A stretch of 64,000 nucleotides of DNA from Escherichia coli. Lineage in GTDB: Bacteria > Pseudomonadota > Gammaproteobacteria > Enterobacterales > Enterobacteriaceae. Position 1 is the stretch's first letter; each line of letters starts with the position of its first letter. The stretch lies in the NCBI RefSeq assembly GCF_024298765.1, contig NZ_CP101210.1. One strand, 5' to 3'. The notes under the pieces are model-generated. The model worked only from the letters and a program-made list of their open reading frames with translations. It had not been told where the DNA came from and did no database searches. The translations under genes and the position numbers were made by a program. Below are positions 57,861 to 63,496 of this stretch, piece after piece.

Positions 57861-59474
57861 TCAATGCTTCACAATATACATAGTCCGACTGTACGCCACA
57901 TCTTCCGGGTTATTAATGGGATAACCTTTCAGCCACGGCTTGATTAATCGTCCATTGGTATATTGATAAATTGGTGCAATCGGTGCTTGCTCCATGAGGA
58001 TTTTTTCTGCCGCATTGTAATCGGCATTACGCGCTTTAACGGTATTTTCCGTTGATGCCTGGGCCAGTACTTTGTCGTATGCCGGATTGTTAAAGCGTGA
58101 AATATTTCCTGAATGCGTTGACGTTAATAATGTCAGGAAAGTGGAGGGTTCATTATAATCCCCTACCCACGAGGCTCGGATAACATCAAAATTGCCGGTG
58201 TTACGGCTATCGATATAGGTTTTCCATTCCTGATTTTGCAATTTAACATCTAAGCCAAGGTTCTTTTTCCACATTGATGCTACAGCAATCGCAATTTTTT
58301 GATGGTTTTCTGAAGTGTTATACAAAAGCGTCAGCTTCAGCGGTTTTTGCGGACCATAACCAGCTGCGCTCAACAAAGTTTTTGCCTGCGCATTCAGTTC
58401 TTCCTGACTCATTTGTTCAAACGGCGAAGGTTCCGGCGTAAATCCTGCAGTAACATCTGGTGTAAAATGCCACGCTGGCTTTTCGCCCGTTCCCAACACT
58501 TTTTCGGTCATCAGGCGGCGATCTATCGTCATACTTAATGCCAGGCGAACACGCTGATCGGCCGTCGGCCCTTTTTGCGTGTTAAACGCATAATAATAGG
58601 TCCCGAGCTGTGGCGGCGTATAAACCTGCCCCGGAATATCCTTCAACAGCTTCTGATACATATTTTTCGGGAAGGATTCGGTGATATCAATATCCCCCGC
58701 GAGATAACGCTTAGTGGCTGCGGATTCCTGATTAATTGGCAGGAAGGTCACTTTTTGCAGCACCGTTTTGGCGTTATCCCAATAATGGGTATTCGGTACC
58801 ACGACCAGTTTTTCATTGACTACGCGCTCTTTAAGAACATAAGCGCCATTACCGATCAGATTTCCGGGTTTCGTCCACTCTTTACTGCTTTCTACGTTGG
58901 CTTTTTGCACCGGGAAGAAGGCAAAGTTAGCGGTTAAATTCACAAACCACGGCAACGGTTTATCAAGCTGGATTTTCAAAGTTTGGGCATCAACTGCGGT
59001 GACGCCAAGCTGGTCAGGCGCGGCTTTACCATCAATAATCGCCTGTGCGTTGTTGATTCCCGCCAGCGCGGCAAACCATGCAAATGGCGACAATGTTTTT
59101 GGGTCCACCAGACGTTGCCAGCTGTAGACAAAATCTTGCGCCGTTACCGGTGTGCCATCCGCCCATTTTGCGTTATCGCGCAGGGTAAAAGTCCAGATAC
59201 GGTTGTCATTACTTTTCCACTGAGTCGCAACGCCGGGGACAATCTCCCCTTTCTCGTTCTGATTCACCAGTCCTTCAAACAGATCGCGAATGACCTGAAT
59301 CTCTGGCAGGCCCACGGCTTTAGCGGGATCCAGCGACGCAGGCTCATCTTTAATGTGGCGCACCAGCTCCTGCTTCTCTGCCAGTACTGTGCCGCTCGGA
59401 ACTTCAGCAGCATACGAAAGAGAAATGCTGCTGACCAACAGCGCACAACACGTGACTGAAACAGAGTGCTTCAT
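57861..59474 (-). CDS. mppA: Periplasmic murein tripeptide-binding protein MppA
   Basis: ORF 57861..59495; start set at MKHSVSVTCCALLVSSISLSYA (537 aa, signal peptide); oligopeptide-binding fold. Confidence 0.9.
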   Translation of the reverse strand: MKHSVSVTCCALLVSSISLSYAAEVPSGTVLAEKQELVRHIKDEPASLDPAKAVGLPEIQVIRDLFEGLVNQNEKGEIVPGVATQWKSNDNRIWTFTLRDNAKWADGTPVTAQDFVYSWQRLVDPKTLSPFAWFAALAGINNAQAIIDGKAAPDQLGVTAVDAQTLKIQLDKPLPWFVNLTANFAFFPVQKANVESSKEWTKPGNLIGNGAYVLKERVVNEKLVVVPNTHYWDNAKTVLQKVTFLPINQESAATKRYLAGDIDITESFPKNMYQKLLKDIPGQVYTPPQLGTYYYAFNTQKGPTADQRVRLALSMTIDRRLMTEKVLGTGEKPAWHFTPDVTAGFTPEPSPFEQMSQEELNAQAKTLLSAAGYGPQKPLKLTLLYNTSENHQKIAIAVASMWKKNLGLDVKLQNQEWKTYIDSRNTGNFDVIRASWVGDYNEPSTFLTLLTSTHSGNISRFNNPAYDKVLAQASTENTVKARNADYNAAEKILMEQAPIAPIYQYTNGRLIKPWLKGYPINNPEDVAYSRTMYIVKH

Positions 59475-59531
59475 AAGTTTCCCTCTAACCGACATTAAAA
59501 TTGATGCGTAATTATTTGTTTCGCCTTAAAG

Positions 59532-59561
59532 AAATGCAAACAACTTCCATCAAAAAAGTGA
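59532..59561. promoter_or_regulatory. Conserved ~30-nt motif aaatgcaaacaacttcc-NN-caaaaaagtga (copy 1, 58-87 nt upstream of mppA start)
   Basis: 28/30 identity with copy 2 at 62643-62672. Confidence 0.5.
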
Positions 59562-59810
59562 CAAAGGAAGCATCAAATGTTTTAAGTATCAATATATCAA
59601 ATCAGATTTAGTGTAAATAATAGTCTCCAAAATGCGGTAAAGCACATAGAACTCCGAACACTACGTTCGGGCTTCGCACGTTCAAACCCGTTTTCGGTAT
59701 CATAATCAGCATCTGTCGCCATTGTACGAAGAATAAAAAATAACCAAAACGTTGAAAGGAACTGAGAATACGTTAAGAGAAAAATTAAATTAATGTATCA
59801 GCAAGTAGTG

Positions 59811-60710
59811 CTAAACAGCACCTTTATACTTCAGCCTATCTATAAATAATGAGAATGCCGAGCCAGCATGTCGACGGTGTGGATAGTACAGGTGATAACC
59901 GGGTAAATCTGGTGTGAATTTATCCAAAACACGTATCAGTTTTTTTTCTTTAATAGCCCGCTCAACCTGATCATAAGGTAGATACGCCAATCCATGCCCA
60001 TCAATTGCAGCATCAATGATCAGGTCTATCGTATTCAGTAAAAGCTGACCTTCCATGCGAACACGAACTTCACGTCCACCGCGTATTAATCTCCAGCGAT
60101 TTGCTGTACCCGATGTGGGAAGATACAAATTAATTGCCTGATGATCTATTAATTGTGACACTGAGGTTGGAGCACTTCGACGAGAAAAATAATCCGGTGA
60201 GCCAACAATAGCCATTGGTATATCTGGCCCGATTCGAATGGCGATCATATCTTTATCCATCTCCCCACCCAGACGGACGCCTGCATCAAAACGTTCAGAA
60301 ACGACATCGGTCAAACCATAATCAATGGTAAGCTGGATATCAATTTCAGGATGCGATTTCAGGAATGTGCGCATAGCTGGTAACAATATCGTTTTTGCTG
60401 CATGTTCTACAGTAGTAATACGTATTGTCCCGGATGGGCGGTTCTGCAGATCGCTCAGGGATGTCAGGGCAGAATCTATGTCATGCAACATAGGGCCAAG
60501 AACAGACAAAAGATGCTCGCCCGCTTCAGTGGGTACAACGCTGCGCGTGGTTCGTGTCAGAAGCCGCAATCCCAATCGTTCTTCTATACGGCGCACTATC
60601 TGGCTTAAAGCTGACTGCGCCATGCTCAGGCGGGCTGCTGCGCGAGTGAAGCTACGCTCCTCTGCAACGACGACAAACGCCATCAGATCAGCGATTTCTT
60701 CACGCTTCAT
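59811..60710 (-). CDS. pgrR: LysR-family regulator YcjZ (PgrR, regulator of peptidoglycan recycling)
   Basis: 299-aa ORF with N-terminal LysR HTH; divergent from ycjY. Confidence 0.9.
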   Translation of the reverse strand: MKREEIADLMAFVVVAEERSFTRAAARLSMAQSALSQIVRRIEERLGLRLLTRTTRSVVPTEAGEHLLSVLGPMLHDIDSALTSLSDLQNRPSGTIRITTVEHAAKTILLPAMRTFLKSHPEIDIQLTIDYGLTDVVSERFDAGVRLGGEMDKDMIAIRIGPDIPMAIVGSPDYFSRRSAPTSVSQLIDHQAINLYLPTSGTANRWRLIRGGREVRVRMEGQLLLNTIDLIIDAAIDGHGLAYLPYDQVERAIKEKKLIRVLDKFTPDLPGYHLYYPHRRHAGSAFSLFIDRLKYKGAV

Positions 60711-60749
60711 TCAGTATCTCCATACAATCTATTAATCATTTAAATGATA

Positions 60750-60777
60750 GGTCTAATCATGATTTTGGGTCTAATCA
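60750..60777. promoter_or_regulatory. Direct repeats ggtctaatca (x2, 18-bp period) plus palindrome atcatttaaatgat in the ycjZ-ycjY divergent promoter
   Basis: Read directly; candidate LysR-type operator. Confidence 0.4.
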
Positions 60778-60835
60778 ACTTAATGATCAATATCTATAGT
60801 GATATCACCAACCGTCAAAACGAACCGACAACTCC

Positions 60836-61768
60836 ATGAGGAACGGAATGATGAATAATAAAGTCAGCTTCACTAACAGCAATAATCCAACCATCTCTTT
60901 GTCTGCAGTGATCTATTTCCCTCCAAAATTTGATGAAACCCGTCAGTATCCGGCAATTGTGGTATCTCACCCAGGTGGGGGCGTTAAAGAGCAAACGGCT
61001 GGAACCTATGCCGAAAAACTGGCGGAAAAGGGATTTGTCACTATTGCTTATGACGCATCTTATCAAGGTGAAAGCGGCGGCGAGCCGCGTCAGTTAGAAA
61101 ACCCATACATTCGTACTGAAGACGTCAGTGCCGTGATTGATTACCTGACAACGCTTTCTTATGTCGACAATAGCCGAATTGGTGCGATGGGAATTTGTGC
61201 CGGTGCAGGATATACAGCCAATGCTGCAATTCAGGATCGCCGCATCAAGGCCATCGGTACTGTTAGTGCGGTCAATATTGGTTCGATGTTCCGTAATGGT
61301 TGGGAAAACAATGTGAAATCTATAGATGCCCTACCATACGTTGACGCGGGTTCAAACGCCCGAACCAGCGATATTAGCAGCAGAGAATACGCCACTATGC
61401 CACTGGCACCAATGAAGGAGTCCGATGCGCCGAACGAAGAACTGCGTCAGGCCTGGGAGTATTACCATACCCCTCGCGCGCAGTATCCAACAGCACCGGG
61501 TTACGCTACTTTGCGCAGCCTTAACCAGATTATTACCTATGATGCTTACCATATGGCGGAAGTGTACCTGACTCAGCCGATACAGATTGTGGCGGGCAGC
61601 CAGGCAGGGAGCAAATGGATGAGTGACGACCTGTACGATCGAGCATCAAGCCAGGATAAACGCTATCACATTGTTGAAGGCGCAAACCATATGGATCTTT
61701 ATGACGGCAAAGTCTATGTGGCTGAAGCAATTTCAGTATTAGCTCCGTTCTTTGAGGAAACTCTGTAA
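60836..61768 (+). CDS. ycjY: Alpha/beta-hydrolase YcjY
   Basis: 310-aa ORF (start may be a few codons later), synteny. Confidence 0.8.
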   Translation: MRNGMMNNKVSFTNSNNPTISLSAVIYFPPKFDETRQYPAIVVSHPGGGVKEQTAGTYAEKLAEKGFVTIAYDASYQGESGGEPRQLENPYIRTEDVSAVIDYLTTLSYVDNSRIGAMGICAGAGYTANAAIQDRRIKAIGTVSAVNIGSMFRNGWENNVKSIDALPYVDAGSNARTSDISSREYATMPLAPMKESDAPNEELRQAWEYYHTPRAQYPTAPGYATLRSLNQIITYDAYHMAEVYLTQPIQIVAGSQAGSKWMSDDLYDRASSQDKRYHIVEGANHMDLYDGKVYVAEAISVLAPFFEETL

Positions 61769-61838
61769 TGAAACATATTCAAATCCGTAATAGTGATATG
61801 GCCTGGCATATTGCTGCCAATAATCTGGGAAAAGTTTC

Positions 61839-62477
61839 ATGAAAAATGTACTGATTCTTGGTGCTGGCGGTCAGATAGCCCGCCATGTGATTAATCAACT
61901 GGCAGATAAACAAACCATTAAACAAACTTTATTTGCCCGTCAGCCAGCAAAAATCCACAAACCCTATCCCACTAATAGCAAGATTATTATGGGGGATGTA
62001 CTGAATCATGCAGCACTGAAGCAGGCCATGCAGGGACAGGATGTTGTGTATGCCAACCTTACGGGGGAAGATTTAGATATTCAGGCAAATTCAGTGATCG
62101 CTGCGATGAAAGCCGGTGATGTTAAACGTCTGATCTTTGTTCTTTCCCTCGGTATTTATGATGAAGTTCCAGGAAAATTTGGCGAATGGAATAATGCAGT
62201 TATTGGTGAACCCCTAAAACCATTCCGCAGGGCTGCAGATGCAATTGAGGCTTCTGGACTGGAATATACAATTCTTCGCCCTGCCTGGCTGACTGATGAA
62301 GATATTATTGATTATGAGCTTACCTCACGCAATGAACCATTCAAAGGTACGATCGTATCACGTAAGAGTGTCGCAGCATTAATTACAGATATCATCGATA
62401 AACCTGAGAAACACATTGGTGAGAATATAGGAATCAATCAACCCGGGACTGATGGCGATAAGCCATTCTTCATGTAA
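61839..62477 (+). CDS. ymjC: NAD(P)H-binding (NmrA/SDR-like) protein, intact ymjC/ymjD-type gene
   Basis: 212-aa uninterrupted ORF with Rossmann motif GAGGQIA. Confidence 0.7.
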   Translation: MKNVLILGAGGQIARHVINQLADKQTIKQTLFARQPAKIHKPYPTNSKIIMGDVLNHAALKQAMQGQDVVYANLTGEDLDIQANSVIAAMKAGDVKRLIFVLSLGIYDEVPGKFGEWNNAVIGEPLKPFRRAADAIEASGLEYTILRPAWLTDEDIIDYELTSRNEPFKGTIVSRKSVAALITDIIDKPEKHIGENIGINQPGTDGDKPFFM

Positions 62478-62495
62478 ATCAATTATATAGCTACC

Positions 62496-62530
62496 ATCGT
62501 ACTGTACTATGTGCAGTACGATTTATTAAA
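62496..62530 (+). terminator. Hairpin after ymjC (atcgtactg...cagtacgat) followed by T-rich run
   Basis: 9-bp perfect stem. Confidence 0.55.
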
Positions 62531-62642
62531 CTTATTAAGGTGAACTGATCAATCAGATGCGATTAACATGTGTAGAACCAGTAAGAATAAAATACGCCAT
62601 GTATATAACATTACGACAATTCTAATATCTGCACATCAATGA

Positions 62643-62672
62643 AAATGCAAACAACTTCCGGCAAAAAAGTGA
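62643..62672. promoter_or_regulatory. Conserved ~30-nt motif (copy 2, ~95-125 nt upstream of mpaA start)
   Basis: 28/30 identity with copy 1 at 59532-59561. Confidence 0.5.
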
Positions 62673-62767
62673 TACAAGATCGATAACATAGCGTTGAAGA
62701 AAAGGATTTGATAATCCGCAAAATTTGCACAACACTGCCTGTAATACTTCCTGAACCAGAGACGATC

Positions 62768-63496
62768 ATGACCGTAACTCGCCCACGCGCCGAACGCGGC
62801 GCATTTCCGCCCGGTACAGAACATTACGGACGTTCATTATTGGGCGCGCCGTTAATCTGGTTTCCGGCCCCTGCAGCCAGTCACGAAAGTGGTTTGATTC
62901 TGGCTGGCACTCACGGTGATGAAAACTCTTCGATCGTCACGCTCTCCTGTGCTCTGCGGACTTTGACACCGTCTTTGCGCCGCCATCATGTGGTGCTGTG
63001 TGTGAATCCTGACGGCTGCCAGTTAGGGTTACGGGCCAATGCTAATGGTGTGGATTTAAACCGAAACTTTCCGGCGGCGAACTGGAAGGAAGGTGAAACC
63101 GTTTATCGCTGGAACAGCGCCGCTGAAGAACGTGATGTCGTATTGCTGACAGGTGACAAACCTGGCTCCGAACCTGAAACCCAGGCGCTGTGCCAGCTTA
63201 TACACCGCATTCAACCTGCCTGGGTGGTCTCATTCCACGATCCGCTGGCCTGTATTGAAGATCCCAGACACAGCGAATTAGGTGAATGGCTGGCCCAGGC
63301 GTTTGAATTGCCTCTGGTAACCAGCGTCGGTTATGAAACGCCTGGCTCTTTCGGTAGTTGGTGTGCAGATCTCAACTTGCATTGCATCACCGCAGAGTTT
63401 CCACCCATCTCCTCCGACGAAGCCAGCGAAAAATATCTCTTTGCGATGGCAAACTTGCTGCGCTGGCATCCTAAAGATGCAATTCGCCCGTCGTGA
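62768..63496 (+). CDS. mpaA: Murein peptide amidase A (gamma-D-Glu-Dap amidase) MpaA
   Basis: ORF 62708..63496; start set at MTVTRPRAERGAFPPGTEHYG (242 aa); zinc-carboxypeptidase-like HxxE motif. Confidence 0.9.
   Translation: MTVTRPRAERGAFPPGTEHYGRSLLGAPLIWFPAPAASHESGLILAGTHGDENSSIVTLSCALRTLTPSLRRHHVVLCVNPDGCQLGLRANANGVDLNRNFPAANWKEGETVYRWNSAAEERDVVLLTGDKPGSEPETQALCQLIHRIQPAWVVSFHDPLACIEDPRHSELGEWLAQAFELPLVTSVGYETPGSFGSWCADLNLHCITAEFPPISSDEASEKYLFAMANLLRWHPKDAIRPS

Follow-up and report, generated by a model that had tools for sequence, protein, structure and literature searches.

The window analysed here, a 64,000-nt stretch of the Escherichia coli contig NZ_CP101210.1 (assembly GCF_024298765.1), carries the genes mppA (−), pgrR (−), ycjY (+), an open reading frame (ORF) of 212 aa (+), mpaA (+) and ycjG (−), in this order (Table 1). 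The ORF runs from ATG to TAA and, according to the ORF list of the window, extends exactly over positions 61839–62477 between ycjY and mpaA; it is already annotated in RefSeq as 'SDR family oxidoreductase', and we refer to it as SDR. A Pfam search aligned residues 8–189 of its product to positions 1–184 of the 184-position NAD_binding_10 profile (PF13460, E=2.7e-54), with a score of 184.3 bits against a gathering cutoff of 27.2. The ORF is real, this match far exceeding chance. The NmrA, Epimerase and 3Beta_HSD families yielded weaker matches that covered the N-terminal part of the ORF only. That of NmrA (PF05368, E=5.5e-12) spanned residues 2–100 on profile positions 3–104 of 298, and the 212-aa protein gave no match to the whole NmrA profile (~300 residues, C-terminal domain included). 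In the same Pfam search of the protein there was no match to adh_short (classical SDR), and NCBIfam returned no equivalog, the best matches scoring far under their cutoffs. The upstream gene product, YcjY, matched the DLH, Peptidase_S15 and Abhydrolase families of Pfam, as well as PDB entry 5xb6 ('Uncharacterized protein YcjY'; E=1.7e-199). An Rfam scan of positions 59400–63000 found nothing.

Table 1. Features of the mppA–mpaA interval and of mpaA in the window.
Feature	Position in the window	Strand	Evidence
Left copy of the 37-nt repeat, from the native mppA-mpaA spacer	59532..59568	+	Repeat search, Citrobacter alignment
pgrR (ycjZ), LysR-type regulator gene, divergent from ycjY	59811..60710	−	ORF list, annotation
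ycjY, first alpha/beta hydrolase of the cassette, 306 aa	60848..61768	+	Pfam, PDB 5xb6, RefSeq
hyd2 remnant, 24 codons, counterpart of ymjD, MKHIQIRNSDMAWHIAANNLGKVS	61768..61842	+	Alignment, translation
SDR gene (full-length form of K-12 ymjC)	61839..62477	+	ORF list, PF13460, PDB 3qvo, RefSeq
Stretch absent in K-12-type genomes (deletion 2, 665 bp): SDR codons 47-212, hairpin and 165-bp spacer	61978..62642	+	Alignment
Hairpin, 12-bp stem, 3-nt loop, candidate cassette terminator	62496..62522	+	Fold energy
Right copy of the 37-nt repeat, with native spacer towards mpaA from here on	62643..62679	+	Repeat search, alignment
mpaA, murein tripeptide amidase, native neighbour outside the cassette	62768..63496	+	NCBIfam NF007897 MpaA equivalog, E=3e-144

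In K-12 MG1655, the interval between ycjY and mpaA holds nothing but ymjD (21 aa) and ymjC (60 aa). When the window, K-12 and O157:H7 EDL933 were aligned base by base, two separate deletions became apparent at this place. Deletion 1, common to the window and K-12, is an in-frame loss of 867 bp that took nearly all of hyd2, a second alpha/beta-hydrolase gene located between ycjY and SDR, whose 310-aa product is ~40% identical to YcjY and which is intact at this length in O26 RM8426 and strain CUPS and frameshifted in EDL933. Its junction in the window (61822|61823) is the same as in K-12. Thus, K-12 ymjD (b4673, MKHIQIRNSDMDWHIAANNLG) consists of hyd2 codons 1–18 fused to the last two hyd2 residues, and its counterpart in the window is 24 rather than 21 aa long because a TAA-to-AAA change lets the ORF end in the SDR start codon. 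At both ends this remnant shares bases with its neighbours, its ATG with the ycjY stop (TAATG) and its TGA with the SDR start (ATGA). Directly 5' of the SDR ATG, both the window and K-12 lack 12 bp (ATGAGAAATATT) that are present in strains of the ycjY-hyd2-SDR type (state A) and that correspond to the four extra N-terminal codons of the Pseudocitrobacter orthologue.

Deletion 2 sets K-12 apart from the window. K-12 ymjC (b4525) is a 60-aa stump made of SDR residues 1–46, which are identical, and 14 read-through residues (KMQTTSGKKVIQDR), and microhomology at the deletion-2 junction amounts to just 1 ambiguous base. SDR is therefore the full-length orthologue of ymjC, at the same position and collinear with it except for a single 665-bp gap. 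That the direction of change is deletion follows from the retained ends, ymjD keeping hyd2 codons 1–18 plus the last two residues and ymjC keeping SDR codons 1–46. The preliminary description of this DNA had recognized, between ycjY and mpaA, an intact ORF with a Rossmann motif where K-12 has small fragments, and in all of this it was right: the ORF list and the annotation agree on the position, the motif is there (see below), and K-12, with its 665-bp gap opposite the ORF at 61839–62477, does not carry the same intact ORF. Its designation as a ymjC/ymjD-type gene is correct for ymjC, the N-terminal stump of SDR, and has to be dropped for ymjD, the remnant of hyd2, a separate gene. The cluster, described there as complete, is not: since the window carries the hyd2 remnant with a K-12-identical junction, SDR does not replace ymjD, and the 867 bp of hyd2 are missing here as well.

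We then scored these variants in a population sample of 5426 complete E. coli genomes. The 1151-bp region with SDR was at least 80% covered in 2892 of them and hyd2 was present in 1272, while the junctions of deletion 1 and deletion 2 were recovered in 3941 and 2294, respectively. The four counts are mutually consistent and leave ~200 genomes with other variants. State A (ycjY-hyd2-SDR) accounts for ~1272 genomes, sampled strains including O157:H7, O26, O145 and O8; state B, that of the window (ycjY-remnant-SDR), for ~1620–1650, with UTI89 and ST131 among the sampled strains; and state C, the K-12 type in which SDR is truncated too, for ~2294, including K-12 and BL21. SDR is thus kept in roughly 53% of complete E. 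coli genomes, and every sampled row lists it as an ordinary CDS.

To place the locus in a wider context, the SDR protein was searched against one genome per bacterial species, and the best 80 loci were analysed by tblastn with the window proteins. No Escherichia locus is among these best 80 matches. They comprise a Pseudocitrobacter MAG (83% identity), relatives at 63–69% in Afipia, Mesorhizobium, Hyphomicrobium, Stenotrophomonas, Paraburkholderia, Caballeronia, Cupriavidus and Achromobacter, and others at ~50% in Bacteroidota and many Lactobacillaceae. In 10 of the best 80 loci we found the complete ordered set of a divergent LysR-type gene followed by ycjY-type, hyd2-type and SDR genes, the genera being Pseudocitrobacter, Afipia, Mesorhizobium, Hyphomicrobium, Stenotrophomonas, Paraburkholderia, Caballeronia and Achromobacter. 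This cassette is thus spread over Alpha-, Beta- and Gammaproteobacteria, in part also over Bacteroidota, and does not once adjoin mpaA; indeed, neither mpaA nor mppA had a single match in the best 80 SDR loci from other taxa. Within E. coli, the full cassette is found in O26 and CUPS, and in EDL933 with hyd2 frameshifted; the window, in which hyd2 is a 24-codon remnant, does not hold the ordered four-gene set.

The constancy of the partners differs between the two hydrolases. Among the best 80 loci, a hyd2-type hydrolase adjoins SDR in 26 of the 29 that have any hydrolase, and only two (L026 and L031) combine SDR with an adjacent ycjY-type hydrolase without hyd2, as in the window; L081 has just a distant ycjY-type match on the opposite strand. 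YcjY is 85% identical to proteins of Afipia and Hyphomicrobium, and PgrR reaches up to 87% identity in Pseudocitrobacter and 71–73% in Afipia, Hyphomicrobium and Mesorhizobium. Identities of 85% for YcjY and 72–73% for PgrR between Alpha- and Gammaproteobacteria are too high for vertical descent, which argues for horizontal transfer. Further neighbours of the cassette in other taxa encode OYE-type flavin oxidoreductases, flavodoxin-like NAD(P)H:quinone oxidoreductases, classical SDRs, cupins and AraC/HxlR regulators, and judging by these gene families they point to a putative small-molecule redox or detoxification context. The non-coding stretches of the window at 59562–59812 and 62478–62642 had no meaningful match in the cassettes of other taxa.

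The SDR protein has a solved structure. PDB entry 3qvo aligns to it over 212/212 residues (~98% identity, E=1.5e-136) and is the top Foldseek match; it is the same protein from Shigella flexneri, deposited by structural genomics in 2011 under the title 'Rossmann-fold NAD(P)-binding family protein / NmrA family protein', and differs from the window SDR by K48Q, V69I, G93C and G115V. An AF2 model of the latter, built on 30 homologues, reached a pLDDT of 90.1, and Foldseek ranked 3qvo first, followed by Veillonella 3r6d/4hnh and then by human BLVRB and ChuY. Among solved homologues from outside Escherichia and Shigella, the Veillonella parvula protein (3r6d/4hng/4hnh/4ipt; E=1.5e-19, 30% identity, TM 0.89) comes closest; 3r6d and 4hnh are structural-genomics entries, and one of the four entries is described as a complex. 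Both human BLVRB (biliverdin-IX-beta reductase / flavin reductase) and E. coli ChuY (anaerobilin reductase) belong to the NAD_binding_10 family as atypical SDRs with a single domain. The SDR model is likewise a single-domain Rossmann fold of ~200 aa that superposes on BLVRB, with TM values of 0.79–0.81 to 1hdo, 1he3 and 7er7 and of 0.81 to ChuY (5ffq). Fold and size (~205 aa) match over this TM range, whereas identity is just ~20%, with sequence-level E-values of 2e-5 (BLVRB) and 3e-6 (ChuY). The likeness is one of fold and overall sequence, and the genetic context differs, that of SDR being a hydrolase cassette rather than haem utilisation.

Inspection of conserved positions supported a cofactor-binding protein. 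The Rossmann motif G8-A9-G10-G11-Q-I13-A14 lies, in the model, between a strand (residues 2–7) and a helix (12–21), and G8, A9, G11 and A14 are invariant in the 30 homologues. All 42 of the 42 family-invariant residues are present in the window SDR; beyond the glycine motif they include R34, Y71-A-N-L74, G105, E109, G112-K-F-G-E-W-N-N119 and Y143, and further on R147, P148, W150, E160, T162, F168, G170, T171 and R175. The motifs GKFGEWNN and YTxxRPxW are strictly conserved in the family. SDRs that use NADPH typically have an Arg behind strand beta-2, which is where R34 lies. Together, the glycine motif and R34 suggest a preference for NADPH, and the protein is predicted to bind NAD(P)H, probably in the form of NADPH. 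The canonical Ser...YxxxK tetrad of SDRs was not recovered, there being no YxxxK in the SDR sequence; Y107, near-invariant (≥90% of sequences), and the invariant K113 are six residues apart.

SDR is under purifying selection. Five E. coli alleles, with only 4–15 substitutions per pair, gave dN/dS ratios of 0.03–0.14; the ratio was about 0.1 when alleles of state B were set against those of state A, and 0.04 against Pseudocitrobacter. The comparison across states bears directly on a first alternative, namely that SDR has been a functionless relic since the loss of hyd2, intact by inertia and heading for the K-12 state. There is some ground for it. The deleted hyd2 is the most constant partner of SDR (26 of the 29 hydrolase loci among the best 80), and the pathway may therefore be crippled in the window. 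SDR has been lost at least twice independently in E. coli, in the 2294 K-12-type genomes and in strain 873.10, which reads ycjY-hyd2-IS1B-mpaA with SDR gone, and such repeated loss argues for weak selection in this species. IS1 elements have also hit the locus in strain 181.1, whose sequence is 100% identical to that of the window and which carries IS1A between ycjY and SDR. Moreover, family-invariant positions are altered by R175P in EDL933 and by G115V in the Shigella protein of 3qvo. On the other hand, the window SDR keeps G115 and every other invariant residue, dN/dS stays at ~0.1 between state B and state A, and some 1620 genomes maintain state B, with a regular CDS annotation of the gene in all sampled rows. 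The remnant ORF still links ycjY to SDR through its stop/start overlaps, and the loci L026 and L031 likewise pair a ycjY-type hydrolase alone with SDR. We therefore consider a relic unlikely.

A second alternative concerns the activity rather than the integrity of the protein. With YxxxK absent and just Y107 and K113 in its stead, SDR might be a non-catalytic, NmrA-like sensor of NAD(P)(H) that modulates PgrR or another regulator, a notion fostered by the Pfam match to NmrA (E=5.5e-12) and by the name that the depositors of 3qvo gave to the protein ('NmrA family protein'). However, that match is limited to the N-terminal 100 residues, that is, the Rossmann part, while NAD_binding_10 matches over its full length; the closest characterised folds, BLVRB and ChuY, are true reductases; and GKFGEWNN, YTxxRPxW and an enzyme operon with oxidoreductase neighbours fit catalysis better. 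A regulatory, non-enzymatic role is in our view quite improbable. SDR is probably a BLVRB-like NADPH reductase that would act together with esterases or lactonases.

How the cassette came to lie upstream of mpaA was deduced from relatives without it. Citrobacter, Pseudocitrobacter faecalis and Enterobacter mori have no gene between mppA (−) and mpaA (+), only a spacer of ~180 bp from which the two genes diverge. The Citrobacter spacer aligned to two separate parts of the window, 59359–59561 and 62643–62865, with ~30 nt aligning to both. A repeat search returned the corresponding direct repeat, two 37-nt copies of 86% identity spaced 3111 bp apart, and the Citrobacter spacer has a single counterpart of both copies. 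This repeat and the spacer alignment together indicate a 3.1-kb insert (~4.0 kb in state A) with target duplication. G+C content is 0.36–0.48 across the cassette and 0.53–0.55 in mpaA and ycjG. The last base lost in deletion 2 of K-12 directly adjoins the right repeat copy, at the cassette boundary.

Downstream of the insert, the 125 bp preceding mpaA are native sequence that persists in states A, B and C. Within this stretch, the motif TTTGCACAACACTGC (62724–62738), 5' of mpaA, is shared with Citrobacter, Pseudocitrobacter and Enterobacter. We discarded it as a sigma-54 promoter, as it showed no canonical spacing at ≤2 mismatches and such matches do not exceed chance frequency in the window. 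The distance from SDR to mpaA is 290 bp in the window, and this interval includes the hairpin, which starts 19 nt after the SDR stop and is followed by UUUAUU. Its folding energy is −16.2 kcal/mol (z=−5.5), and 0 of 200 shuffled sequences folded as well. The hairpin is identical in EDL933 and lost in K-12; the cassette of Pseudocitrobacter has an equivalent in the corresponding position, with AU-to-CG and UA-to-CG changes at the stem base. The short T-tract of the window hairpin kept a simple terminator scan from calling it, and a promoter scan of the SDR-mpaA spacer found none. From this arrangement, cassette transcription would end at the hairpin and mpaA would be expressed from a promoter of its own in the native spacer.

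These results bear on the published regulation of the locus. PMC5934670 and PMC3946193 report a PgrR-controlled ycjY-ymjDC-mpaA unit for K-12; the K-12 PgrR regulon of Shimada et al. (2013), as cited in PMC5934670 and PMC10505187, has the binding site of PgrR between ycjY and pgrR and includes autoregulation of PgrR. The locus and the regulator gene are shared with the window, whereas the mpaA-containing form of the operon exists only in deletion-2 genomes, the window having 290 bp and a hairpin between SDR and mpaA. Since K-12 lacks the hairpin, the published unit describes the deletion state. We tentatively propose, while regarding it as somewhat doubtful, that membership of mpaA in a PgrR-controlled ycjY operon is a lineage-specific by-product of the 665-bp deletion; in SDR-positive genomes PgrR would then control an esterase/reductase cassette only, unrelated to murein, and mpaA would depend on its native promoter in the 125-bp spacer.

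The preliminary description had suggested that an ancestral ycjY-ymjC-mpaA operon is complete here, and this reading can be extended to a peptidoglycan context, with SDR as the intact middle member of a murein tripeptide recycling unit; the co-stranded arrangement of ycjY, SDR and mpaA, the K-12 unit just mentioned, and an ORF intact here and truncated in K-12 may speak for it, but the comparative data, as far as sequences go, already contradict it and render it hardly credible, in that hyd2 is the missing gene, mpaA is unlinked to SDR or the hydrolases in the best 80 loci of other taxa, mppA adjoins mpaA in three related genera, a duplicated 37-nt piece of native spacer bounds the cassette, a stable hairpin within 290 bp separates SDR from mpaA, and no cassette protein falls into a peptidoglycan-specific family of Pfam or NCBIfam.

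Collectively, the data make it likely that SDR is a functional BLVRB-like reductase gene, the last one of a horizontally acquired PgrR cassette that has been decaying stepwise in the mppA-mpaA spacer. A four-gene cassette, with pgrR divergent from ycjY, hyd2 and SDR, would have been acquired horizontally and have entered the spacer with duplication of ~37 nt, giving rise to the full cassette of state A. State B would have arisen by loss of hyd2 through the 867-bp in-frame deletion, plus that of the 12 bp before the SDR start, and state C by the additional loss of SDR codons 47–212 and the hairpin, which would have generated 'ymjC' and left mpaA abutting the cassette operon. As for the enzymatic role, substrate class and cofactor preference, we infer that SDR may reduce, with NADPH, a small carbonyl, quinone or activated double-bond compound, which the neighbouring hydrolases of the esterase/lactonase type would make or use under control of PgrR.

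The SDR gene, its crystal structure and its variable presence are already known from public databases and papers, 'ymjC, putative oxidoreductase' being listed as a variable gene in pangenome studies (PMC9602453). Modestly new are the reading of the locus as an inserted cassette and that of the PgrR-mpaA link as an artefact of the K-12-type deletion. K-12, the reference for regulon and operon annotation, holds the most degraded of the three common cassette states, and the 'ycjY-ymjD-ymjC-mpaA operon' would be a deletion product. The placement of mpaA in K-12 is the basis for regarding PgrR as a regulator of peptidoglycan recycling and YcjY as a putative peptidoglycan hydrolase; the label 'putative peptidoglycan degradation' attached to YcjY (PMC12711010) likewise rests on this K-12-specific adjacency. 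The evolutionary context described here opens no major question and is useful for the annotation of these genes and for studies of PgrR.

The foreign insert carrying pgrR and ycjY-hyd2-SDR in the mppA-mpaA spacer (the cassette) lies between two copies of a 37-nt direct repeat, both of which match one single-copy site in the corresponding Citrobacter spacer. From its sequence, this pair looks like either a long target duplication or an att-like scar, although the cassette carries neither an integrase nor a transposase. Within the inserted block, RefSeq annotates in EDL933 a fragment of a QueH gene, placed with the left repeat copy on one side and the pgrR 3' end on the other. This fragment may stem from the donor's own gene neighbourhood; a comparison with cassettes from other taxa gave no gene to match it. 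At the opposite end, the 665-bp deletion of the K-12 type has its last base directly before the right repeat copy (window 62642/62643), that is, at the exact boundary between cassette and native spacer, and its junction shows microhomology of only 1 nt.

Sequence features of the cassette locus and its surroundings
Feature	Position	Remarks
37-nt direct repeat	window 59532-59568 and 62643-62679	86% identity; brackets the pgrR-ycjY-SDR block
25-codon internal fragment of 'epoxyqueuosine reductase QueH'	EDL933 locus (L003) 1040-1114; window about 59640-59715	RefSeq annotation
12-bp indel ATGAGAAATATT	window 61838/61839 vs L003 4108-4119	separates state A (ycjY-hyd2-SDR) from B (hyd2 lost by deletion 1, as in the window) and C (K-12 type, also with the 665-bp deletion)
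Motif TTTGCACAACACTGC	window 62724-62738	~30-45 nt ahead of where mpaA starts

Beyond this boundary, the motif TTTGCACAACACTGC is kept in the Citrobacter, Pseudocitrobacter and Enterobacter spacers, and may represent a native promoter or operator element of mpaA. A sigma-54 reading of this motif was tested and is unsupported.

Immediately before the start of the reductase gene SDR, the 12-bp ATGAGAAATATT is an imperfect tandem copy of ATGAAAAATGTA, which directly follows it. As read from the sequence, it could add four N-terminal residues (MRNI-) to SDR in state A and in Pseudocitrobacter, and it includes the likely ribosome-binding purines.

Among the sampled strains, deletion 1 is common to B2-type strains (UTI89, ST131), K-12 and BL21, and the second hydrolase gene, hyd2, is retained in O157, O26, O145 and O8 strains. 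This distribution probably departs from the species tree, which suggests that alleles have spread by recombination. In O157:H7 EDL933, hyd2 (L003 3169-4099) is frameshifted within a poly-G run and SDR (L003 4120-4758) carries R175P at a position invariant across the family, while the crystallised Shigella protein (3qvo) bears G115V at another family-invariant position. Together, these changes suggest that the cassette is decaying in the EDL933 and Shigella lineages too.

Insertion sequences also occur here. E. coli 181.1, otherwise 100% identical to the window, harbors IS1A between ycjY and SDR (L091 870-1567), and E. coli 873.10, which retains hyd2, has IS1B in the expected place of SDR (L092 5007-5704). 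Judged by sequence comparison, the cassette locus is a site of active IS1, and IS1 matches were likewise evident in H3 and H9, two matches from the search of complete E. coli genomes with the SDR region.
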